A DNA stretch of 10,327 nt, from NCBI GenBank assembly GCA_039589315.1, contig JBDHHQ010000135.1, positions 1 through 10,327 of the forward strand, written 5' to 3'. Made by a program: the position numbers and the translations under genes. Origin of the DNA: Gemmatimonadota bacterium. GTDB taxonomy: Bacteria; Gemmatimonadota; Gemmatimonadetes; Longimicrobiales; Gaopeijiaceae. Below the pieces are notes generated by a model. That model saw only the letters and a list, made by a program, of their open reading frames with translations, did no database searches and had not been told where the DNA came from. Numbering within the stretch: the stretch's first letter is position 1; each line of letters begins with the position of its first letter. Of this stretch, positions 1 to 10,327 are shown piece after piece.

Positions 1-2
1 GG

Positions 3-62
3 GTGCCGGCGAGTGGTCGAGGGGACGAACCCGACTCGGTGGAAGCGAGCAGGCTGGACTAA
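3..62 (+). CDS. Possible 3' end of an upstream gene (partial, unknown product)
   Basis: Frame 3 reads VPASGRGDEPDSVEASRLD-TAA(60-62) with mostly G/C-ending codons and stops 22 nt before the ATG at 85. Too short to identify. Confidence 0.25.
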   Translation: MPASGRGDEPDSVEASRLD

Positions 63-84
63 CGACCCGCAGACGGAGCGGTCC

Positions 85-2151
85 ATGAAGCTCACTCGAG
101 GATCGATGAGGTCCAGCCGGTTCAGCGGCAGCCGCGAGCGGGCCTCGGCGGCTCGCCGGCCCGGTCCGTCCGAATCCGCACGGCGGGGCGTGGCCCAGCT
201 GGCCCTCCTCTTCACGACAGCCGGCACCATCGGGGTCGCGGTGCCTCCGGTGCCCGCAGTGGCCCAGGACACCGAAGAGATCCTCTCGTACGACGTCCGC
301 ATCGAGATCCCCAACGGCGCCGCGATGGTGGTGACCGAGGAGATCCGGGTGCGGGCGTTGGGGGCCGAGATTCGGCGGGGCATCTACCGCGACTTCCCCA
401 CCAGCTTTCCGAGGTCCAGCGGCCTCGGCAGGATCGAGGCGCCGTTCCAGGTCCTCCGCGTGCTACAGAACGGCCAACCTGCGCGCTACGAGCTCCTGAG
501 CATCGGTGGTGAGTTCGGCCGCGGCGGGATCCAGGTCCGCATCGGGGACCCGGACGTCTTCCTCGAGCCTGGCGAGTACACCTACACGATCGAGTACGAG
601 ACGGAGCGGTGGGTGACCTTCGGCGAGGCGTCGGATCAGCTCTACTGGAACGTCACCGGAAACGGATGGGCGTTTCCGATCCTGGCGGCGTCGGCTCGCG
701 TGCACGTGGCGGGCCTGGAGCTGGCCCCCGGTCTCGAGGCTTGGACCGGGCCCGACGGATCCACCGAGAGCCATGCCGAGATGTCGTGGGACGAGGCCCG
801 GGAGGAGGCCGTGTTCCGCACGACCCAGGCCCTGGGAGCGCGGGAGGGACTCACCATCCGGGTGACCATCCCCAAGGGCGTGCTCGCCCCGCCGTCGGAA
901 GAGAAGCAGGCCGAGTGGTTGCGGCTGGACTGGGGCGGCTACATCGACGCGGGCTACCTGGTCATGTTCCTGATCGCCATGTATGCCCTCATGTGGGTCA
1001 GCGTCGGACGCGACCCGGCCAAGCGGTCCACCGTGGTCCAGTACGAGCCGCCCGAGGGGTTCTCACCGGCCGCTCTCGGATACCTGCAGGAGCAGGGCTA
1101 CGACGACAGCCAGTTCGCGGCCGCCCTGGTGAGCATGGCCGTGAAGAGCGCCGTGCGGATCGAGAAGGACGACTGGCGGTGGACGCTACACAAGGGCCCC
1201 AACGCCCGGGGCCTCACTCCCGACGAGGAGAAGGTGTTCGAGGGGCTGCTCGCCGGTAGGAGCCACCTGGATCTCGAGCAACGGCACCACAGGAGGATAC
1301 GCAAGTCGATCAAGAGCCTGAAGCACAAGCTGTCTCGCCAGCTCGAGCGGGAGTACTTCGTCTACAACCGGAAGTGGTTCGCGGCCGGGCTCGTCGTGAG
1401 CATCCTGGGATTTCTGATCCTGGTCTGGCGGGCCCGCTTCGGCGTCTCGCCGGGCGCCTGGTTCCTCGGGCTCTGGCTCACGGGGTGGACGGCCGGCGTG
1501 GCGACCATGATCTACCGGGCGTTCAAGGAGCTCGAGACCGGCCTCAGAGGTGGCGGCGTCGTTGCCCTGGTCGGCGGTGCCTTCGTGCTGCTGTTCTCGA
1601 TCCCGTTCGTGGGCGCCGAGCTGTTCGTCAGCTACATGCTCCTCCAGATGGTGCCGACCCACCTGATGCTGGCGGCGCTGGCCATCGGGGTTGTGAACGT
1701 GGTCTTCTACCACCTACTGGAGCGTCCCACGCTGCGGGGACGAGGCGTGCTCGATCACCTGGACGGATTTCGCACCTTCCTCGCAGCCACCGACGAGGAT
1801 CGGCTGGACCGCATGGTGGAGCCGGAGCGGACGCCCGAGCTCTTCGAGCGCTTTCTGCCACACGCAATCGCGCTGGGCCTGGCGAATCGATGGGCGGAGG
1901 GCTTCCAGGACGTGCTCACCGCGGAGGTCGTCGCTGCCAGGGGAAGCGGTGCGCTCTCATGGTACCAAGGGAGCTCGGACGGCTTCGACGCGTCGGGCTT
2001 CGCGTCGTCGTTGGGCGCGAGCCTCCCGCACACGCTCTCATCGTCATCCAGAGCGCCGGGAGGTAGCGGCGGAGGCAGCGGTGGGGGCGGTGGGGGGGGT
2101 GGGGGATCCTCTGGTGGCGGGGGTGGCGGCGGTGGTGGGGGCGGTTGGTAG
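85..2151 (+). CDS. DUF2207 family (YciQ-like) predicted membrane protein, about 688 aa
   Basis: ATG at 85 preceded by GGAG (75-78); GTG at 190 is an alternative start. Signal-like segment ending AVA-QD. N-terminal extracytoplasmic domain with EILSYDVRIEI, GIYRDFP, YTIEY and LYWNVTGNGWAFPI; QYEPPEGFSPA; several TM helices; GFRTFL and FERFLPHAIALG..RWA..F; Gly-rich tail ending GGGGGGW. All are typical of DUF2207. Confidence 0.9.
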   Translation: MKLTRGSMRSSRFSGSRERASAARRPGPSESARRGVAQLALLFTTAGTIGVAVPPVPAVAQDTEEILSYDVRIEIPNGAAMVVTEEIRVRALGAEIRRGIYRDFPTSFPRSSGLGRIEAPFQVLRVLQNGQPARYELLSIGGEFGRGGIQVRIGDPDVFLEPGEYTYTIEYETERWVTFGEASDQLYWNVTGNGWAFPILAASARVHVAGLELAPGLEAWTGPDGSTESHAEMSWDEAREEAVFRTTQALGAREGLTIRVTIPKGVLAPPSEEKQAEWLRLDWGGYIDAGYLVMFLIAMYALMWVSVGRDPAKRSTVVQYEPPEGFSPAALGYLQEQGYDDSQFAAALVSMAVKSAVRIEKDDWRWTLHKGPNARGLTPDEEKVFEGLLAGRSHLDLEQRHHRRIRKSIKSLKHKLSRQLEREYFVYNRKWFAAGLVVSILGFLILVWRARFGVSPGAWFLGLWLTGWTAGVATMIYRAFKELETGLRGGGVVALVGGAFVLLFSIPFVGAELFVSYMLLQMVPTHLMLAALAIGVVNVVFYHLLERPTLRGRGVLDHLDGFRTFLAATDEDRLDRMVEPERTPELFERFLPHAIALGLANRWAEGFQDVLTAEVVAARGSGALSWYQGSSDGFDASGFASSLGASLPHTLSSSSRAPGGSGGGSGGGGGGGGGSSGGGGGGGGGGGW

Positions 2152-2239
2152 GGGGTTCAGCCAGGGCCGTCGATCCCGGGACTCGAGCGCGGACTCGCGA
2201 GCCGGGGAAGGGAAGGCCTCGCGGCAGGGTGGCGGCCCT

Positions 2240-2917
2240 TCAGCGCCCCAGCCCAAGTCCCAGGCCCACCATGAACGACCACGACCTCCACTTGGCGGTA
2301 TCGTCGGTGGCCGCCTCGGAAAGCCCGAGCTGGTAGCGCAGGTCGCCCGTCAGGATCAGAGCGCCCAGGGCCAGGTCCACACCGCCGCCAAAGGCCAGAG
2401 AGGTCTGGGTCGCGTTCGTGTCGAGCTGAAAGTCCGGGCAGTCCGTGGCGGACAGCCCGGATTCGGCTTCGATGCGGCAACGAGTCTCGAACGAGAGGAT
2501 CGGACCGCCGTAGACGAACGGGCTGATGGCGCCCGGGATCAGCCGGAGGCCCAGGAGCGCGGCGAGGTCGGCGAAGTCCGTCTTCAGCTCCGCCGTGTCT
2601 CCATCCGACGTACCGCGGACTCGGCGGCTCGCATACAGGAGCTCGGGCTGCAGAAAGACGGACCGGCTGAGTCCGAACTGCGCGTAGGCTCCGGCCACGT
2701 AGCCGGCACGGCTCTCGGTGTCATCCAGGTCGGAGAGGCTGGATCCGTTGACACCACCCTTGAGCCCCACCGTGATGCCCTGGGCCGCGGCTGGCGCGGC
2801 CGCCAGGAAGAGGAAGAGGCAGGCGACGCGGATCGCCGCCGGAGGGGAGAACGTGCATGCGCCAGAGCCACCACGCGTCGCGGCGTGGATCGGCGGCATG
2901 AGTGTCGCACGGGACAT
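2240..2917 (-). CDS. Outer-membrane beta-barrel protein (porin/PorT-like, OMP_b-brl_2 type)
   Basis: GGAG about 10 nt before ATG 2917 (ATG 2899 and TTG 2926 are alternatives). Signal peptide ending AAA-QG; motifs GLKGGVNGSSL, FLQPELLY, PFVYGGP, FGGGVD, DLRYQLGLS and a terminal amphipathic strand WSFMVGLGLGL; a Cys pair in a loop. Confidence 0.85.
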   Translation of the reverse strand: MSRATLMPPIHAATRGGSGACTFSPPAAIRVACLFLFLAAAPAAAQGITVGLKGGVNGSSLSDLDDTESRAGYVAGAYAQFGLSRSVFLQPELLYASRRVRGTSDGDTAELKTDFADLAALLGLRLIPGAISPFVYGGPILSFETRCRIEAESGLSATDCPDFQLDTNATQTSLAFGGGVDLALGALILTGDLRYQLGLSEAATDDTAKWRSWSFMVGLGLGLGR

Positions 2918-3129
2918 CGTATCCAAACTCCGGAGCGCGGCGTCGGTTCGGCCATCCGACCGCTGGCATCTTCGGCCGGCGAGCGGGTGGATTGAAACGG
3001 GTCAGCCTGTCTCGAAACGGGCGAAGCGAGTCGGATCTGACAGGGGGGGCCAGCGCCCCCCGGGTCGGGGCTGCGCCGCCTGCCCCGGGCTCCCCTGCAC
3101 CCCGGTTCGTCCGCTGACGGGCCCGATGA

Positions 3130-3170
3130 AACACGCCCCCCGGCCGCGTGGAGCCACCGGGGGGCGTGTT
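3130..3170 (-). terminator. Probable intrinsic terminator of the 3227..3688 gene
   Basis: Perfect 14-bp inverted repeat AACACGCCCCCCGG (3130-3143) / CCGGGGGGCGTGTT (3157-3170) with a 13-nt loop; reads into GTGTTTCAT on the minus strand; about 56 nt after the stop codon. Confidence 0.7.
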
Positions 3171-3226
3171 CGGGAGCCGACGGCAGAGCGGCTTGGTTCA
3201 CGAGCTCTGCCGATCCGGCGCGAGGG

Positions 3227-3688
3227 TCAGTTGGCGGACTCGTCGCCCTTGACCTCGACCGTCGCCGTGCAGGTGCCGTTCTCACCCAGCAGCGTGACCT
3301 CGAAGCTGCCCGGAGTGGCCTCGAAAGCGTTCAGCCAAACGACGAACGTGTTCGCCTCGACTGCTTCCTCGGCCGCCATCTCGGTCACCTCGGCGGCAGC
3401 CGCATCTTCAGTGTTGGCCATCTCTTCCACCGGAACGTCCTCGGGCGAGACGATCAGGAGGCCGCTGCCCTCGGGGGACTGGAGACCGTCGATGGTGCCG
3501 ATGTCCTGGGTGAGCGTGGCCTTGACCTTGACCGCGGCCTCGCCGGCCGGGATCAGGGCGGGGGTCAGCACTGCCGTGCAGGGCTGGATCTCCTCGACCG
3601 CGGCCTCGGCCTCCTGAGCCGTTGCAGCGCCGGGAACGAGCGCAGCCAGGAGCGCCAGCGGAAGGATGTGGGACGGGTTGAAACGCAT
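3227..3688 (-). CDS. Hypothetical secreted acidic protein, 153 aa (possible beta-sandwich with one disulfide)
   Basis: GGAGG RBS 8 nt before ATG; Sec signal peptide (MRFNPSHILPLALLAALVPGAATA-Q); GC-biased third positions; two Cys near the ends of the mature chain; own promoter and terminator. Confidence 0.85.
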   Translation of the reverse strand: MRFNPSHILPLALLAALVPGAATAQEAEAAVEEIQPCTAVLTPALIPAGEAAVKVKATLTQDIGTIDGLQSPEGSGLLIVSPEDVPVEEMANTEDAAAAEVTEMAAEEAVEANTFVVWLNAFEATPGSFEVTLLGENGTCTATVEVKGDESAN

Positions 3689-3763
3689 TTGCCTGCCTCC
3701 AACGGTAATGAAAGGTAAGTCGTCTGCGCACCCGCGAGCGTCGCCGGCGCGCCCCGGAGAAGG

Positions 3764-3778
3764 GCAATACGCGTGCCA
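3764..3778 (-). promoter_or_regulatory. sigma54 (RpoN) -24/-12 promoter for the 3227..3688 gene
   Basis: Minus strand TGGCACG-CGTA-TTGC matches consensus TGGCACG-N4-TTGC with exact GG-N10-GC spacing; intergenic and correctly oriented, about 75 nt before the ATG. Confidence 0.8.
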
Positions 3779-3841
3779 CGGGTTGGAACCCAGAGGAACC
3801 GGCTCGCAAGGGGGGCGGCGAGGGGGTGGAACGCCCGTGCC

Positions 3842-5371
3842 TCAGCCTCCGCCCGGACCTGCGCCGAAGATCTCCAGGCTCCTGACCTCCTCCACGCCGC
3901 TGTCGCCTGGGTGGCGCTGGCGGAGGAGGATCCTGGGCCGGGCCGCACGGAAGTAGGCGTCGGTGTTGGAGAGCCCGCTGGCCACGTTGATCCGGAACGC
4001 CTCGTAGACCTCGCCAGCCACCTCGAGCTGCTCGATAGCCCGGACGTCGTACCGATCGGTCATGACGTCCCCGCTGGCTGCGTCGAAGGTGGCCAGCTCG
4101 ACGCTTCGGCCGACGAGAGAGTCGACCGCCAGAGTGCCGAACGCCAGGTGCCGGACCTCCCTCAGGACGATACCGGGCGGCAGGTCCCGCTCCAGCTCCT
4201 GGACCCGCCCGGTCTCGTCACGGATCAGGCCCCGCACCTTGTAGCCGTCGAAGCGAAGATCGTACGATGCCTCCTCCCACACCTCACCCGTCCACCGGGC
4301 GGTCTCTCCCCGCGTGGAGATGGGCTCGAGCCCGTTCCGGTGGACGAGCGTGCGGACCCGCTCCCGACGGACCGTTTGCGGCGTGCCGAAGGGCCCGCTG
4401 GTCCGGGTGGTTTCTCCTTCCAGGTATCGCTCGATGCGCGGCTCACCACCCCCAACGGTCTCGATGATCCGGTAGGTGACGCGCGTCCGTCGCCACAGGT
4501 CCTCGCCGATCCGGACCTCCATCTCCACGCTGTAGCCGCCGAACTCGCTCACGTCGAACAGGAGGCCCCGGTTCACCGCGTTGCCGGCAGAGGAGAGCGG
4601 GACCCTCGTGGGATCCGCGGGGGAAGGCGTGGGACGCAACACGGCCACGGGCTCTCCGTCCATGTTGGCCAGGAGCCCCCGCGCGTAGTTGATGGGCAGC
4701 GCGAAGTTCAGATTCTGCCCGGAGGGCATCTGCGACGAAGCGATTCCTACCACGTGCCCCGTTCTCGAGAGGACCGGGCCGCCGCTCGAGCCCACGGAGG
4801 CGGGCGCGCTGATCTGCAGGAGCTGGTATCCCTCGGACTCCTGCCTCCGGCCGCTCACGATCCCGGTCGTGACCGTGTTCTCGAGCCCCAGCGGGCTGCC
4901 GATGAGGACGACCGGGTTGCCGATCTTGATGCTGTCCGAGTTGCCCAGCGGAAGGGACGGCAGGTCGAAGCCGGCGATCTGGAGCACCGCCATGTCGCGC
5001 CGCTCGTCCGTGGCCAGGATCTGCACCACGTCGTATACGTCGCCCGAGGCCAGCCTCACCTGAAGGCTCTCGGCATTCCGGATCACGTGCTGGTTGGTGA
5101 GGATGCGGCCGCTGGCGTCGACGAGAAACCCGCTGCCCTGCCGCGTGGCGGCGGCGGTCGTGACGTCGATCCGCACGACAGCGCGCGTGGCTGCGGCGGC
5201 GAGCTCCACCAGGGTGTCCTGGGCCTGAGCCGACACCGCGGCGAGCGACGCCACCGGCACCGGCGTCACGGCAGCCTGAGAGGGCGCGGCGAGCAGAATC
5301 GCCGGCAGCAGAAGCGCCGCCGGTAAGCCGGCGGAACGATGGCGCCCGCGCGTACGGTCCGAAGTAAGCAT
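3842..5371 (-). CDS. Exported trypsin-like (S1C/HtrA-type) serine protease without PDZ, with a C-terminal DUF3108-like beta domain, about 509 aa
   Basis: GGAGG upstream of ATG 5371; hydrophobic signal segment; GSGFLV, ILTNQHVI (His), DMAVL (Asp), IGSPLGLENTVTTGIVS, GSSGGPV (Ser) and NLNFALP motifs. The C-terminal EQLEVAGEVYEAFRINV resembles the DUF3108-type E-x-V-x-V-PAG-x-F-x-A motif. Confidence 0.9.
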   Translation of the reverse strand: MLTSDRTRGRHRSAGLPAALLLPAILLAAPSQAAVTPVPVASLAAVSAQAQDTLVELAAAATRAVVRIDVTTAAATRQGSGFLVDASGRILTNQHVIRNAESLQVRLASGDVYDVVQILATDERRDMAVLQIAGFDLPSLPLGNSDSIKIGNPVVLIGSPLGLENTVTTGIVSGRRQESEGYQLLQISAPASVGSSGGPVLSRTGHVVGIASSQMPSGQNLNFALPINYARGLLANMDGEPVAVLRPTPSPADPTRVPLSSAGNAVNRGLLFDVSEFGGYSVEMEVRIGEDLWRRTRVTYRIIETVGGGEPRIERYLEGETTRTSGPFGTPQTVRRERVRTLVHRNGLEPISTRGETARWTGEVWEEASYDLRFDGYKVRGLIRDETGRVQELERDLPPGIVLREVRHLAFGTLAVDSLVGRSVELATFDAASGDVMTDRYDVRAIEQLEVAGEVYEAFRINVASGLSNTDAYFRAARPRILLRQRHPGDSGVEEVRSLEIFGAGPGGG

Positions 5372-5759
5372 CTCGCGTCCATCCTCCAATCCCGGCGGGC
5401 CCATGGCGACGGAGACAACATATGTTTACGTGGCCCGCCAAGGCCAGTCTGACGATTCCATTGGCCCGGACCAGCGGTTTCTCCCCTGGGGCCGGTTTGC
5501 TCTCGTCATCGATCCCGGCGGCTCCGTTCGATGAGGCAGCGACCCCGGCAACCCGGGGGCGCTCCACCCTGCCCGAAGACGTCGGGCCCAAGTGGACCGC
5601 AATGGTCGTGCCGGGTCGGACCCGCGGGGCCGGATCCATGCTCTCCCTGTGCGAGCCAGCCGCCTCGATCTCGGACCGAGACTTGCGCGTCCGGGCCCCA
5701 GCGTAAACGCTCGAGGCCTGCATTCCATCTCTCCTACGACACCGCACAGAGGAGACACG

Positions 5760-6365
5760 ATCGACGCGGAGCGCGCGGGATCGGATGCAACGGCGATACG
5801 GGGCTGGATCGAGGCCGCTCAGGCGGGCGACGCTGACGCCTTCGACCACCTCGCCCGGCACGCGCTGCCGTCGCTCCGCCGGTGGGCGCTGGTGCGGACC
5901 GGCGATCCCGACGACGCCGACGACGTGGTCCAGCGGACGCTCGTGAGAGCGTACACCGCCATCGACTCCTTGCGCGGCGCCCAGGCCTTCCACGGCTGGC
6001 TGTACGCGATCATGCGGAACGTGGCCAGCGAGCTGGGCCGACGGGCGCGGTCGAGAGACCGTACCCTGAAGCGACTCGAGGCCGCCCACGCGCCGGATGC
6101 TGCGCACGAGGTGGGGGGCCGGAACCCGCAAAGCAGCGAGTCCACGGAGTTGGCGGACCTGGTGCGGACGTTTCTGGAAGAGCTGAGCGATCAACAGAGA
6201 GCGATCATGGATCTCGTGGATCTTCAGGGCATGACCCCGACCGAGGCCGGGAAGGTGATGGGTCTGAGGCCCAGCACCGCCCGGGTTCACCTGCTGCGCG
6301 CGCGGCGGCGGATCCGGGCCCGGATCCTGGCGGTCCGGCCTTCCATCGTGGAGGACCTCTCGTGA
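5760..6365 (+). CDS. ECF (sigma-24/RpoE-type) RNA polymerase sigma factor; start uncertain (ATC 5760 favoured; GTG 5592 or 5649 are the canonical alternatives)
   Basis: AQAGDADAF; region 2 DADDVVQRTLVRAY and FHGWLYAIMRN; region 4 LSDQQRAIMDLVDLQGMTPTEAGKVMG...STARVHLLRARRRIR. SD AGAGGAG (5748-5754) lies 5 nt before an in-frame ATC. Confidence 0.92.
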   Translation: MDAERAGSDATAIRGWIEAAQAGDADAFDHLARHALPSLRRWALVRTGDPDDADDVVQRTLVRAYTAIDSLRGAQAFHGWLYAIMRNVASELGRRARSRDRTLKRLEAAHAPDAAHEVGGRNPQSSESTELADLVRTFLEELSDQQRAIMDLVDLQGMTPTEAGKVMGLRPSTARVHLLRARRRIRARILAVRPSIVEDLS

Positions 6366-6919
6366 CGCGTTGCGAAGATGCGCGCGCTCTGCTCCTCGAG
6401 GCCGACCTGGGTGAGCTGCTCGGAGAAGGTCCGTCGGAGCTGGCGGTCCACGTCCGCCAGTGTGCCGCATGCGCCGAGCTGGGCCAACGGATCCTGGACG
6501 GACAGGCGGCCCTTTCCGGAGCGCTGGGGGAGATGGCGGAGCGCGTTGCGGTGGATGCGGATCCGGCCCGGGCGCGGTCCGGGGTGGCGGGGCTTCCGGC
6601 GGGAGCGGGGCGGAAGGAGGAGGCCGCAGGTGCTCGGCCGAGGGCAGTGGCACTCCCGTCGGGAGCCGAGTCGGCCGTGCGGAAGAAGCGTCTGGTCTGG
6701 CGCGTCGCGCTTCCGCTGGCTGCCGCGGCCGCGGCCGCGCTGGCGCTGTTCCAGCTCCCCGGTCCGACGGGGACCGGTGTCCCTTTCGTCCCGCCGGAGT
6801 TGGCGCAGCGGGGGATGGAAGGCGGCGGTGGGCTGGTGGCGGCCGCGAGCCCGGAGACGAATGTCGCCGTGCTGCCGACGGACAACCCGGACATCACGGT
6901 GGTCTGGTTCATTCGATAG
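6362..6919 (+). CDS. Zinc-binding (ZAS / zf-HC2) membrane-anchored anti-sigma factor, 185 aa
   Basis: GTG 6362 overlaps the sigma stop codon (GTGA) with GGAGG at 6350-6354. N-terminal Cys4 plus HVRQCAAC (HxxxCxxC), basic stretch RKKR, TM helix VALPLAAAAAAALALF, short exported tail ending NVAVLPTDNPDITVVWFIR. Confidence 0.88.
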   Translation: MTRCEDARALLLEADLGELLGEGPSELAVHVRQCAACAELGQRILDGQAALSGALGEMAERVAVDADPARARSGVAGLPAGAGRKEEAAGARPRAVALPSGAESAVRKKRLVWRVALPLAAAAAAALALFQLPGPTGTGVPFVPPELAQRGMEGGGGLVAAASPETNVAVLPTDNPDITVVWFIR

Positions 6920-6945
6920 GGCGTAGCCCAAACGGAGAGAGACAC

Positions 6946-7656
6946 ATGCTCACGAAGATGGGGATCTGGTGGAAGACGACGGTGGCGGGCCTCGTGGGAG
7001 CCGCGGCTCTCTTGATGGGATGCGAGCCGGAGCTCGAGGTCAGGACCTTCGAGCTGCAGCGCCTCGAGGGCTCGGAGGCGGCGGCGCTGATCTCACCCTA
7101 CGTATACTCGGACCGTGAGGGCGCGGCGGGCGACATGAGCCACGCCGAAGGGGTGCTCACGGTGCGAGAGATGCCCGAGAACCTGGACCGCATCGCCGAG
7201 GTGTTGGCCACTTATGACCGGGCTCCGGCCGCGGTCACGCTCAACTTCCAGCTGATCGAGGCGAACGGATTCAGCGGGGGTAACGACGCCTTCGCCGAGG
7301 TGGAGGCCGAGCTGCGCAGCCTGCTCCGCTATGAGGGCTACCGCATGGTGGGTGACGCGGTGCTGCAGGTGCGCGAGGGCGGTCGGGCGACCCTTCAGAT
7401 CGACCGCATCGGCGACGAAGGGCCCCAGGAAGAGCCGCCGTACCAGCTGGAGGTGTGGGTCGCGCAGATCACGGGCGACGGTGGGGACGCCGCGGCCGAC
7501 ATCGCGGTGTCACTCAACCATCCGTGGTACGACAACCTGCTCGACACCCGCGTACACGTGGGCAACGGCAAATCCATGGTCCTGGGCACCACGTCTGCGG
7601 GGCAGGGTGACGCCGAAGCCATGATCCTGGTGGTGCGGCCCACGGTGGGGCAGTAG
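6946..7656 (+). CDS. Lipoprotein with a secretin N-terminal (NolW-like) domain and a reduced secretin-like beta domain, 236 aa
   Basis: GGAGAG RBS then ATG 6946; lipobox LMG-C26. Residues about 31-94 (VRTFELQRL...AAALISPY...LTVREMPENLDRIAEVLATYDRAP) match the secretin N-domain pattern; the C-terminal DTRVHVGNGKSMVLG...MILVVRPTV matches secretin core strands. Confidence 0.8.
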   Translation: MLTKMGIWWKTTVAGLVGAAALLMGCEPELEVRTFELQRLEGSEAAALISPYVYSDREGAAGDMSHAEGVLTVREMPENLDRIAEVLATYDRAPAAVTLNFQLIEANGFSGGNDAFAEVEAELRSLLRYEGYRMVGDAVLQVREGGRATLQIDRIGDEGPQEEPPYQLEVWVAQITGDGGDAAADIAVSLNHPWYDNLLDTRVHVGNGKSMVLGTTSAGQGDAEAMILVVRPTVGQ

Positions 7657-7677
7657 AGCCAGGCACAGTAAAGCAGA

Positions 7678-7712
7678 GAGCCGTGGTCGCCGTCATCAAG
7701 GCGCCACGGCTC
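7678..7712. terminator. Hairpin between convergent genes, probable terminator (U-richer tail on the minus strand)
   Basis: GAGCCGTGG (7678-7686) / CCACGGCTC (7704-7712) plus inner CGCC/GGCG with one bulged T and an 8-nt loop; the minus strand continues TCTGCTTTACT. Confidence 0.6.
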
Positions 7713-7733
7713 ACGCCCTTCAGGCTTCGGCCA

Positions 7734-8834
7734 CTACGGGACGAAGGCGATCCCGAACGGGTTCAGCCCCACCGTGGCGCTCACCAGGAAGCTCGGGACA
7801 CCCTTCTCGGCAACGAAGAGGCTGAGCTTGTCGGCCGTCCCTCCCGAGTGTGTCACGGCGATGCGACGTCCGTTCCGGGACACGGCCACGTTGTGAGGCA
7901 CCGGGAACGGCGTACTAAGCACGTCTCCTGTCAGTGCGAGCCCCTTGGTATCCAGCGTGAACAGCGCGTCCGTGCCTGCGCCAGGCAGGTTGGTGACGTA
8001 CAGGTGTTTGCCGTTGTTCGACATGCCGACGCCGTGCGCTCCAGGCAAAGCGATATCGGTGATCGACGCCAGCGAAATCCGGTCGACTACGGAGAGCAGG
8101 TTACTGTTCTGCGCCGCCACGTAGAGGCGCCCATCGTTCCTGTTCAGCGAAACGTGCGGATCCTGGCCAACGGCGGCGCGGTTCACTTCAGCAAACGTGG
8201 CTGTCTCGAACTGGACCACGTAATCGTCAGGGCCGGCGAGCCCCAGCATGCTCACGTAGGCCCGACTGCCGTCATACGACAGGATCACGTCGTGGGGCTT
8301 GCCGCCCGAGGCCACCAGATCTGCCGGCATCGGAACCGTGGCTACGGTGGTCAGGGTCACCGGATCGATGACGCTCGCGGTGTTGTCGATGTCGTTGTTG
8401 ACCCAAAGCTGCGTGCCCGTACCGCTGACCCACATGTGGAACACGCCCTGCCCTGCCGAGGCCGTGCCGAGGACCGAATAGTCGGCAGCGTCGAACGCGA
8501 CCACACGATCATTGGCTCGGTCTCCGACGAGGACGCTGTTGTTCAGGGCCACGTAGACCACGTACATCGGCTCGGGCGGGTTGTCGGAGGCCGACTGCGG
8601 AAGGGCGTAGGTACCCGATACGCTGCCGTCGCTCGCCGACACCACCGAGATGGTACCGCTGGCGCGGTTCGCGGTGACGAAGGTGCCTGGGCTGCCCCCT
8701 CCCATGATCAATTCGGGGTGCAGCGCGCTCGGGCCCGCGGGGCCAGACGAATCCGGACTGCAAGCCGCCAGGAAGGCTGCGAGGGCGAGCAGTCCGATGA
8801 GTGAGGATGAATGGCGCATGTGCAGACTCGTCAT
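7734..8834 (-). CDS. YVTN/YncE-type seven-bladed beta-propeller lipoprotein, 366 aa
   Basis: GGAGG 5 nt before ATG 8834; lipobox LAA-C; repeated blades (FVTANRASGTISVVS, LWVNNDIDNTASVID, LYVAAQNSNLLSVVD, LYVTN) and terminal VGLNPFGIAF. Confidence 0.9.
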   Translation of the reverse strand: MTSLHMRHSSSLIGLLALAAFLAACSPDSSGPAGPSALHPELIMGGGSPGTFVTANRASGTISVVSASDGSVSGTYALPQSASDNPPEPMYVVYVALNNSVLVGDRANDRVVAFDAADYSVLGTASAGQGVFHMWVSGTGTQLWVNNDIDNTASVIDPVTLTTVATVPMPADLVASGGKPHDVILSYDGSRAYVSMLGLAGPDDYVVQFETATFAEVNRAAVGQDPHVSLNRNDGRLYVAAQNSNLLSVVDRISLASITDIALPGAHGVGMSNNGKHLYVTNLPGAGTDALFTLDTKGLALTGDVLSTPFPVPHNVAVSRNGRRIAVTHSGGTADKLSLFVAEKGVPSFLVSATVGLNPFGIAFVP

Positions 8835-9191
8835 GATCGCCTCCGTTGGTGACAACCGGGTCGGCCGCGGCAGCGTGGGGCCCCTCGACCGGGTCGGAGC
8901 GGGCGGGCCCGAAGGCGCTCCTGAGTAGGGTCGGCGGCAGTACCGAGAATGTTGCGGCTCCCATCCACGAGGACAAGGACGGTGGGGGTCCGCCTCAGAA
9001 GTCCGGACTGTGGGTAGCTCACGCTTCTCCTGGACCAGGTCCTGTCACGAAATGAAGCAACCGTCTACGGCTCGAAGTAACGAATGTCCGCATCTTGTGC
9101 CGCCATCCGGCGATCTGCCCATCCCTTGGGAATCGCCCTAGGTATTAGACTGGCAGGCACTTACACTTGTAGAGGCCATCCACCGGCAGCG

Positions 9192-9207
9192 TGGCATGCC
9201 CGTTGCT
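9192..9207 (+). promoter_or_regulatory. sigma54 (RpoN) -24/-12 promoter for the 9305..10090 gene
   Basis: TGGCATG-CCCG-TTGCT with exact GG-N10-GC spacing, about 97 nt before an ATG that has a perfect SD. Confidence 0.78.
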
Positions 9208-9304
9208 CAAAATGCTGGCTCGGCTCCCGCAGATCCACCGCATCGGGTCGCTCGTATCCCGGACGCGCCATGCGTCCAGGGCGACCCGCAAGGAGGTGAG
9301 TCTC

Positions 9305-10090
9305 ATGGGTACACGCAGGTCTAAAGAGCTACTCACGGTAGTGGGCGCGGTGAGCGTGTTGGCACTAGGCTGTACGGCCGCCGAGTCCAAGGACAATCCT
9401 GACGGCGATGCCATTCCTGCTGCCGAGCAGCCGGCCGAGGCACAGCCCGCTCAGGAGCGGATCGCGGAGCAGCCCCCGAGGGAGCGGCCCGTGGCAAGCC
9501 AGCCTCCCGCGAGCCAGCCCGCGCCGAAGCAGCCTGCGGCCGAGCCGCCCACGATGCCCACCCCCACGGTCTTCGCTCCGGCCGGGACCCGGATGACGTT
9601 CCGCCTCACGGAGTCACTCTCCACCAAGTCGACCCGGGTGGGCGACCGCTTCCAGGCCACGCTGACCGAGGACGTGGTTTCGCCGCGAGGCGAGGTGCTG
9701 GTCCCGCTGGGGTCGGTGGCTCAAGGGGTGGTGGTCCAGTCGGAGGAGAGCCAGGGGTCGGACCAACCGGCCGTCCTCGCCCTGCGCATGGAGATGCTGG
9801 CGGTGCGTGGCGACACCCACCCGCTCGAGGCCACGATCGTAGAGGCAGACGCCAACGCGGACACCCGGGACAGCGGTGGCGAGACCGCCGTGAAGATCGC
9901 GGCCGGAGCAGCCGCAGGCGCACTGCTGGGTCGCGTCATCGGCGGCGACACGGAGGGAGCGCTCGTTGGGGCCGGTGCCGGAGCGGTGGCCGGGACGGTC
10001 TTTGCCGTCACCACCAAGGGTGGTCACGCCGAGATGGGCGAGGGATCGACGCTGACCGTGCGCCTGGACGAGCCGCTGCCGCTTCCCTAG
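9305..10090 (+). CDS. Lipoprotein with Pro/Gln-rich linker, VirB10/TrbI-like domain and glycine-zipper hairpin, 261 aa
   Basis: AAGGAGGTGA SD then ATG 9305; lipobox ALG-C23; PAAEQP/ASQP-rich linker; PAGTRMTFRLTESLST, FQATLTEDV, VLVPLGSVAQG and GSTLTVRLDEPL; glycine zipper AAGAAAGALLGRVIGG...GALVGAGAGAVAG. Confidence 0.85.
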   Translation: MGTRRSKELLTVVGAVSVLALGCTAAESKDNPDGDAIPAAEQPAEAQPAQERIAEQPPRERPVASQPPASQPAPKQPAAEPPTMPTPTVFAPAGTRMTFRLTESLSTKSTRVGDRFQATLTEDVVSPRGEVLVPLGSVAQGVVVQSEESQGSDQPAVLALRMEMLAVRGDTHPLEATIVEADANADTRDSGGETAVKIAAGAAAGALLGRVIGGDTEGALVGAGAGAVAGTVFAVTTKGGHAEMGEGSTLTVRLDEPLPLP

Positions 10091-10188
10091 GGAGGGGACA
10101 AAGGGCAAACGGTGGGGCGGCTCCCGCGTGCCCGACGGGGGCATCGAGGCTGCTCCTGGCCAGCTCACTCGGGTGGATCGAGGTTGGC

Positions 10189-10327
10189 TTACTCTAGCGG
10201 CTCGAAGCCGGCCACCACGAAGTGGTGATCGAATGCGAATGCCCGGGATAGTCGGAGCCTGCGCATGACCTCGAAGCTCACCGCGTTGGTCAGGGAGAAG
10301 CGCTGATCACCGAACCGGTCCAACCAC
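10189..10327 (-). CDS. vapC: PIN-domain protein (VapC-like toxin), C-terminal 45 aa; the gene begins beyond the window
   Basis: Manual minus-strand translation from 10326: WLDRFGDQRFSLTNAVSFEVMRRLRLSRAFAFDHHFVVAGFEPLE-TAA, matching the VapC pattern D-x-x-FSLTD-x-x-SF-x-VM...AF-x-FD-x-HF-x-x-AGF. Not in the ORF track. Confidence 0.85.
   Translation of the reverse strand, partial: WLDRFGDQRFSLTNAVSFEVMRRLRLSRAFAFDHHFVVAGFEPLE

Follow-up and report, generated by a model that had tools for sequence, protein, structure and literature searches.

What does a secretin-related protein do when its gene lies directly behind genes for a sigma factor of the extracytoplasmic function (ECF) type and its anti-sigma factor? 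The question is raised by a 10,327-nucleotide stretch of a Gemmatimonadota genome (assembly GCA_039589315.1, contig JBDHHQ010000135.1, positions 1 to 10,327, which is the entire contig; hereafter the window), in which three forward-strand genes encode an ECF sigma factor, a single-pass anti-sigma factor and a small protein that we call the mini-secretin. A sequence-only reading of the window had proposed that a secretin-derived lipoprotein has been repurposed as the periplasmic or outer-membrane partner of the anti-sigma tail and reports the state of the envelope to the sigma factor. Our analysis indicated that the triad is real and conserved, that the third protein is a secretin trimmed of its pore parts, and that, judging from how the genes and domains occur together, it very probably partners the anti-sigma tail. 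The operon layout was as first read, with three co-directional genes and a closing hairpin: the anti-sigma start overlaps the sigma stop through GTGA, and a 26-nucleotide gap (6920-6945) separates the anti-sigma gene from the third gene (6946-7656, 236 amino acids). The features are as follows.

5703-5731, forward strand: putative autoregulatory ECF promoter, with -35 element GTAAACG (5703-5709), 16-nucleotide spacer and -10 element CATCTC (5726-5731), from motif comparison across loci
5750-5754, forward strand: Shine-Dalgarno-like AGGAG ahead of a non-canonical ATC start, from the sequence
5760-6365, forward strand: ECF sigma factor of 201 amino acids, sigma2 and sigma4 without extension, from Pfam, NCBIfam and a tree
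6362-6919, forward strand: anti-sigma factor of 185 amino acids, with a C4...H30xxxC34xxC37 zinc-type motif, one transmembrane helix (approximately residues 112-131), a short linker and a conserved C-terminal tail
6833-6913, forward strand: periplasmic tail of the anti-sigma factor (residues ~158-184), inferred docking element, from conservation and pairing with the mini-secretin gene
6946-7023, forward strand: signal peptide of the mini-secretin, with lipobox-like L-M-G-C (Cys26), from the sequence
7033-7227, forward strand: secretin N3-like ring-building domain of the third protein (residues ~30-94)
7228-7656, forward strand: trimmed secretin core of the third protein, a beta-sandwich with one conserved helix at the lip position and without amphipathic loop, gates or S domain
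7678-7712, strand not assigned: GC-rich hairpin between the operon end and a convergent beta-propeller gene, a possible terminator, from folding

The third protein is a trimmed secretin

Secretins were the top structural matches of the third protein, which combines an N3 domain ahead of the core with the double beta-sheet fold of the secretin core. The Secretin_N family matched this copy below the Pfam cut-off (E 0.029) and reached E<=0.1 in 70 of 82 homologues. These two lines of evidence bear out the proposed secretin origin. PF00263 did not match the protein in the scan of its own genome. There was likewise no Pfam match to STN, and the protein has no barrel.

Compared with the genome's own secretins, the parts that build and close the pore are reduced or absent. 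The lip segment measures 25 residues and the amphipathic-loop segment 12, where those secretins have 63-100 and 40; the two gate segments have medians of 10 and 12 residues (vs 30-41 and 24-29, respectively), and the median of 7 residues after the last strand leaves no S domain. The amphipathic-loop motif, present in both true secretins of the genome, was found in none of the 237 family proteins. In place of the lip stands a helix segment whose length is nearly constant (25 residues) and which is among the most conserved parts of the protein. Because the lip, the amphipathic loop, the gates and the S domain are missing, we conclude that the third protein is not a pore.

Its anchor, on the other hand, varies. 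A strict lipobox pattern was found in 56 of 72 members of full form (N3 plus core), seven full-form members read by eye have a hydrophobic N-terminal segment and no Cys, and the 15 core-only members L086-L100 have no lipobox. The family is thus attached by a lipobox, by a Cys-less hydrophobic N-terminus or by direct fusion to the inner-membrane anti-sigma factor, or has a cleavable signal peptide. Since Cys-less variants exist, lipoprotein sorting, one of the envelope states that the system had been suggested to report, is unlikely to be its signal.

The triad is conserved in Gemmatimonadota

Single-sequence searches returned 95 relatives of the third protein and, separately, 400 cluster representatives at E<=0.001; among the matches listed, nearly all relatives have 200-290 amino acids. 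In the species-genome collection, a sigma gene was located upstream in 52 of 55 loci, and the other three are cut by the contig end (<520 bases upstream). By label, 52 of the 55 loci belong to Gemmatimonadota or are unassigned and 3 belong to Pseudomonadota. A family profile matched 64 of 301 genomes of the phylum, approximately one in five of those sampled. From the profile matches, 50 further loci were cut, which include the window's own genome and in some cases repeat earlier loci; sigma and anti-sigma genes were found in 48 of them, and the other two are a locus at a contig edge and a lone fragment. In nearly all cases, then, the third gene goes with such a sigma and anti-sigma pair, and the missing linkage that would have spoken against the sequence-only reading was not observed. 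After 12 rows were dropped (8 near-duplicates and 4 frameshifted or truncated), 89 pairs were kept, and one more pair was left out of alignments A3 and A4 (88 rows).

The neighbourhood comparison found no fourth conserved gene. There was no true secretin gene in 122 module-centred loci, no gene for type II or type III secretion, pili or phage export among the 30 most recurrent neighbour clusters, and, as had been noted from the sequence, none of the nine proteins scanned in the window was seen to belong to a secretion system or pilus. The genome of the window has its own RcpA and PilQ at other loci. True secretins were present in 25 of 25 module-bearing genomes tested and in 12 of 14 without the module, and these counts neither support nor exclude secretin assembly as the signal.

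Three metagenome-assembled genomes labelled Pseudomonadota (L050, L054 and L055) carry the operon, two of them in a lipidated core-only form, and their sigma factors group inside the Gemmatimonadota set, reflecting either transfer or a binning error. In G182, a decayed lone core fragment (L104:3063-4118, reverse strand) lies where the module is usually found, next to clpB and a tRNA-deaminase-like gene.

The anti-sigma tail occurs with the secretin core

The anti-sigma factor of this copy matched zf-HC2 below the Pfam cut-off (E 0.19). Residues C4, H30, C34 and C37 are nevertheless at least 90% conserved (alignment A2) and form the HX3CX2C motif with an upstream Cys/His ligand that defines class I zinc-associated anti-sigma factors. 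HxxxCxxC was found in 66 of 72 full-form anti-sigma factors vs 2 of 17 from core-only loci. A hydrophobic 19-mer scoring >1.6 was present in 81 of 88 anti-sigma factors, and the linker behind the membrane helix is short (median 23 residues). None of the 88 matched FecR.

The C-terminal tail has the consensus V-x4-G-x2-VAVF-x-T-x-NPDI-x-VVW, a pattern present in 83 of 88 anti-sigma factors, with P176 and W182 invariant or nearly so, and searches gave no convincing family match for it. When a profile of the tail alone was run against the 301 genomes, 59 matches were obtained at E<=1e-3, with a score gap to the next match. All 59 directly adjoin a mini-secretin gene, at most 528 nucleotides upstream of it, and none lies elsewhere. 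Seven of 66 family matches had no tail match: one tail is divergent, one is shortened, two matches are fragments and three are fusions. Because every tail match adjoins a mini-secretin gene, and because the fusions described below lack tail and core together, we consider it very probable that the third protein partners the tail. Covariation gave no signal for binding of the partner to the tail.

Natural rearrangements of the module

In three genomes (G225, G228 and G036), the anti-sigma gene continues in frame past its zinc motif and membrane helix into N3, behind a closely related sigma factor and the same promoter, and neither tail nor core was found genome-wide. A search of 251 genomes of the same family gave 11 matches, 10 with a fused N3-like region and one without; the 10 include two already known, one cut by the contig end and one frameshifted. 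The fusion was therefore seen in 11 genomes in all (the 10 matches and G225), which form one clade. Eight of the 11 fusions scored 16-42 bits with the family N3 profile, which misses the genome's true secretins, and the remaining three were recognised only through a fusion profile and by eye. Homology of the fused region to N3 was given a probability of 97% by hhalign (E 2.6e-11). One fusion cluster has 14 members, so an assembly error can be dismissed. The sigma factors of the fusions form one clade, sister to those of the triads, and the change between the separate and the fused arrangement is a single event, in either direction.

The opposite change was found as well, with 17 non-duplicate loci keeping tail and core without N3, and 15 of the 17 also lacking the zinc motif. 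At L097:2968-3957 (reverse strand), a core-only mini-secretin has a CarboxypepD_reg domain replacing N3. Taken together, the fusions, the N3-less loci and the domain swap show that tail and core come and go together, and that the N-terminal domain can be fused, dropped or swapped.

The fusions lie at L175:3120-3791, L176:3257-3928, L177:3246-3911 and L183-L190, and the cysteines on either side of their N3 might form a disulfide. Behind the same sigma factor, G475 (L191) has only a proline-rich tail. The apparent start of a TonB-receptor N-terminus also stands in the place of N3 at L097, and many core-only operons of L086-L100 are followed by same-strand genes for 6-bladed beta-propellers (DUF5128-like).

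A predicted self-promoter

The sigma factor consists of sigma2 and sigma4 only, as is typical of ECF factors (Sigma70_r2 E 1e-12 and r4_2 E 2e-10 in Pfam; TIGR02937 above the cut-off in NCBIfam). Sigma factors of triads and fusions together form one branch, apart from the 13 other ECF factors of the genome (100 local support in a fast tree), and a previous quick tree likewise set 23 of 24 paralogues apart. The gene starts at 5760 with ATC, which is not a common start codon, 5 nucleotides 3' of AGGAG. The same start is found in L001, a Gemmatimonadota metagenome-assembled genome that is the closest relative found (third protein 94% identical), and the next common in-frame start, at residue 45, would drop 44 residues. 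Among the promoter-bearing loci, 75 of 78 have a common start codon for the sigma gene.

Of 86 usable loci, 79 carry the motif GTAAACG-N16-CRTCTC upstream of their sigma gene, vs 0-1 in shuffled regions, which predicts a bipartite autoregulatory promoter. The site at 5703-5731 is the top-scoring match in its own genome, where other sites were not enriched. Across 58 module-bearing genomes, 42 of 58 pattern matches were at the module, leaving 16 elsewhere vs 11 matches of the reversed control; this search found no wider conserved regulon. The extra sites located just 5' of a gene precede, where inspected, genes for exported proteins. In G273, for example, the motif lies ahead of two separate genes for S41-type peptidases (L178:721-1922 and L123), one of which was confirmed by Pfam and heads the sigma operon and the other recognised by eye. 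The motif also precedes a gene for a beta-propeller-like lipoprotein, similar to those behind the core-only operons, away from the module in G205 (L115), and the gene of an unknown secreted protein in G152. In G267 (L122:2170-2767), a decayed, truncated mini-secretin lies directly behind the promoter.

A separate, unnamed family of secreted proteins of 168 amino acids (L121:1251-1757, reverse strand, and L133-L162) was present in 74 of 301 genomes, often with a related but distinct ECF-like promoter of the TCCAAACC-N16-CATCTCA type, which probably marks another ECF regulon.

A model for the module and its alternatives

As expected from its family, the zinc-motif anti-sigma factor would hold the sigma factor at the inner membrane. 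On balance, we favour an autoregulated three-part ECF module in which N3 is tethered through docking of the tail on the core, and in which the partner protects the anti-sigma factor from proteolysis. The tail-core contact would be a non-covalent hook that places N3 beside the anti-sigma factor on the periplasmic side of the inner membrane, as the covalent fusions suggest. At rest, the bound partner would shield the tail from periplasmic proteases; an envelope signal engaging N3 or the core would free the tail, and regulated proteolysis would then release the sigma factor. The released factor is expected to act at the conserved promoter and so transcribe the operon that encodes it, together with, in a few genomes, genes for exported proteins such as S41 peptidases. 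Protection is favoured by analogy with FoxA-FoxR, since passages of PMC11637429 describe a precedent in FoxA/FecA-type receptors, in which a periplasmic domain related to secretins attaches to the C-terminus of the anti-sigma factor and guards it against proteolysis.

As for the signal, ring assembly is possible. The boldest candidate is secretin assembly itself, because N3 is described, in passages of PMC6155069, as a ring-building motif essential for secretin oligomerisation. At the inner membrane, the poreless subunit, or the fused N3, might co-assemble with true secretins that have failed to assemble or are mislocalised, and thereby free the tail. We regard this as a speculative and rather unlikely proposal. 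If true, a pore subunit would have been turned into a modular sensor that monitors how members of its own family are made, and the module would be the ECF equivalent of Psp, the known secretin-stress response.

Among the alternatives, the one that survives best keeps the docking and reverses its sign. The partner would then be an activating transducer, whose N3-driven oligomerisation or ligand capture clusters or exposes the anti-sigma factor and so leads to its cleavage, along the lines of the classical FecA-FecR model. All linkage evidence fits it equally well, the role of N3 in oligomerisation (PMC6155069, in part) speaks for it, and fusions that keep N3 on the anti-sigma factor would suit a permanently attached input domain. 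Core-only forms, however, lack N3 and still have tail, core and promoter, and positive feedback by a co-transcribed activator should be hard to turn off. We hold activation to be unlikely.

Somewhat less likely still is that the third gene is purely an output, a poreless secretin subunit which caps, poisons or chaperones real secretin rings such as PilQ and RcpA under stress. It would explain why the operon's own promoter is nearly the sole conserved target, and every module-bearing genome tested has a true secretin, including PilQ and RcpA in the genome of the window. It leaves unexplained, however, why the tail is never seen apart from the core and is lost along with it, and why N3 is fused to the anti-sigma factor; true secretins are also present in most of the tested genomes without the module, and none was found in the module-centred loci.

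Least probable is an envelope-spanning ring or channel of an outer-membrane lipoprotein, with lipoprotein sorting or ring assembly as the state that it senses. In its favour are the lipobox of this and most full-form copies and the retained ring-forming parts of secretins (N3 and core); against it stand the shortened lip, loop and gate segments, the absent loop motif, the members without Cys or lipobox and the short anti-sigma linker. Of the initial proposal, then, the secretin origin, the linkage and, very probably, the partnership with the tail were upheld, whereas neither the outer-membrane or trans-envelope role nor the sensing of lipoprotein sorting was, given the missing membrane-inserting parts, the variable anchor and the short linker.

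Comparison with known systems

In the RseA-RseB-RpoE system (ECF02), the gene after the anti-sigma gene encodes, as proposed for the triad, a periplasmic protein that protects the anti-sigma factor from degradation; the fold of RseB is unrelated to that of secretins, and no large envelope regulon was detected for the triad sigma factor. Relative to secretins (f1 pIV, GspD/XcpQ/PulD, InvG, PilQ and RcpA; PF03958 and PF00263), the mini-secretin is short (236 amino acids vs 438-585 in the genome's own secretins), lacks the lip, amphipathic helical loop, gate hairpins and S domain, is not encoded beside a true secretin gene, and in some members consists of the core alone.

FoxA-FoxR-FoxI and FecA-FecR-FecI resemble the triad in having an ECF sigma factor, a single-pass anti-sigma factor and an exported partner. 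In these systems, according to the same passages of PMC11637429, an STN domain is carried by a TonB-dependent barrel and the anti-sigma factor is of FecR type, whereas here N3 and a secretin core occur without a barrel and the anti-sigma factor has a zinc-type motif and a tail of ~27 residues. The closest layout among known systems is that of VreA-VreI-VreR (PUMA3) of Pseudomonas aeruginosa, portrayed in passages of PMC2729926 as a three-gene ECF module with a small (~238 amino acids), mostly soluble and barrel-less periplasmic receptor. VreA is built from STN and a TolA-like domain, and the vreA gene was not induced by its own sigma factor (PMC2729926, in part); here, the partner's fold combines N3 with the secretin core, and the operon is predicted to have a conserved promoter for its own sigma factor.

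The triad follows the design of sigma factor, anti-sigma factor and periplasmic partner with a repurposed fold; the present analysis adds the Gemmatimonadota clade and its promoter, the strict pairing of tail and core, and the fusions of anti-sigma factor and N3. The system is apparently undescribed in print: a targeted literature search found no published description, with most subscription journals outside its reach, and the main-text passages and part of the supplement of PMC7826278 contain neither 'secretin' nor 'GTAAAC', while its remaining supplement and ECF group tables could bear on the point. If the model is correct, the known anti-sigma partners would be joined by a new class that is based on the secretin fold, and a pore subunit would prove to be reducible to a signalling adaptor. 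Being small and self-contained, and occurring in three natural architectures (full, core-only and fused) along with a predicted promoter, the module makes the sign of regulation and the signal directly testable in a laboratory host. Furthermore, the trimmed protein is a naturally occurring model for a secretin core free of membrane elements and is of use in studying secretin folding and evolution, and the module was found in roughly a fifth of the genomes sampled from a poorly cultured phylum.

Genes around the operon

The hairpin at 7678-7712 folded better than expected (minimum free energy z -3.9; none of 200 shuffles folded equally well), has no U run and was absent from the output of the terminator scan. 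It sits just ahead of the stop (7734) of a convergent gene for a YncE- or lactonase-like beta-propeller lipoprotein (7734-8855, reverse strand) and is thus common to both sides. The divergent gene at 3842-5404 (reverse strand) encodes an exported trypsin protease of the HtrA-like kind, whose C-terminal half was not recognised, and was not seen to recur beside the operon. Envelope genes are abundant on the contig, and include those for a DUF2207 membrane protein (13-2151, forward strand), a small outer-membrane beta-barrel (2240-2926, reverse strand), an exported protein of 153 amino acids with no Pfam match (3227-3688, reverse strand) and a glycine-zipper lipoprotein (9191-10090, forward strand).
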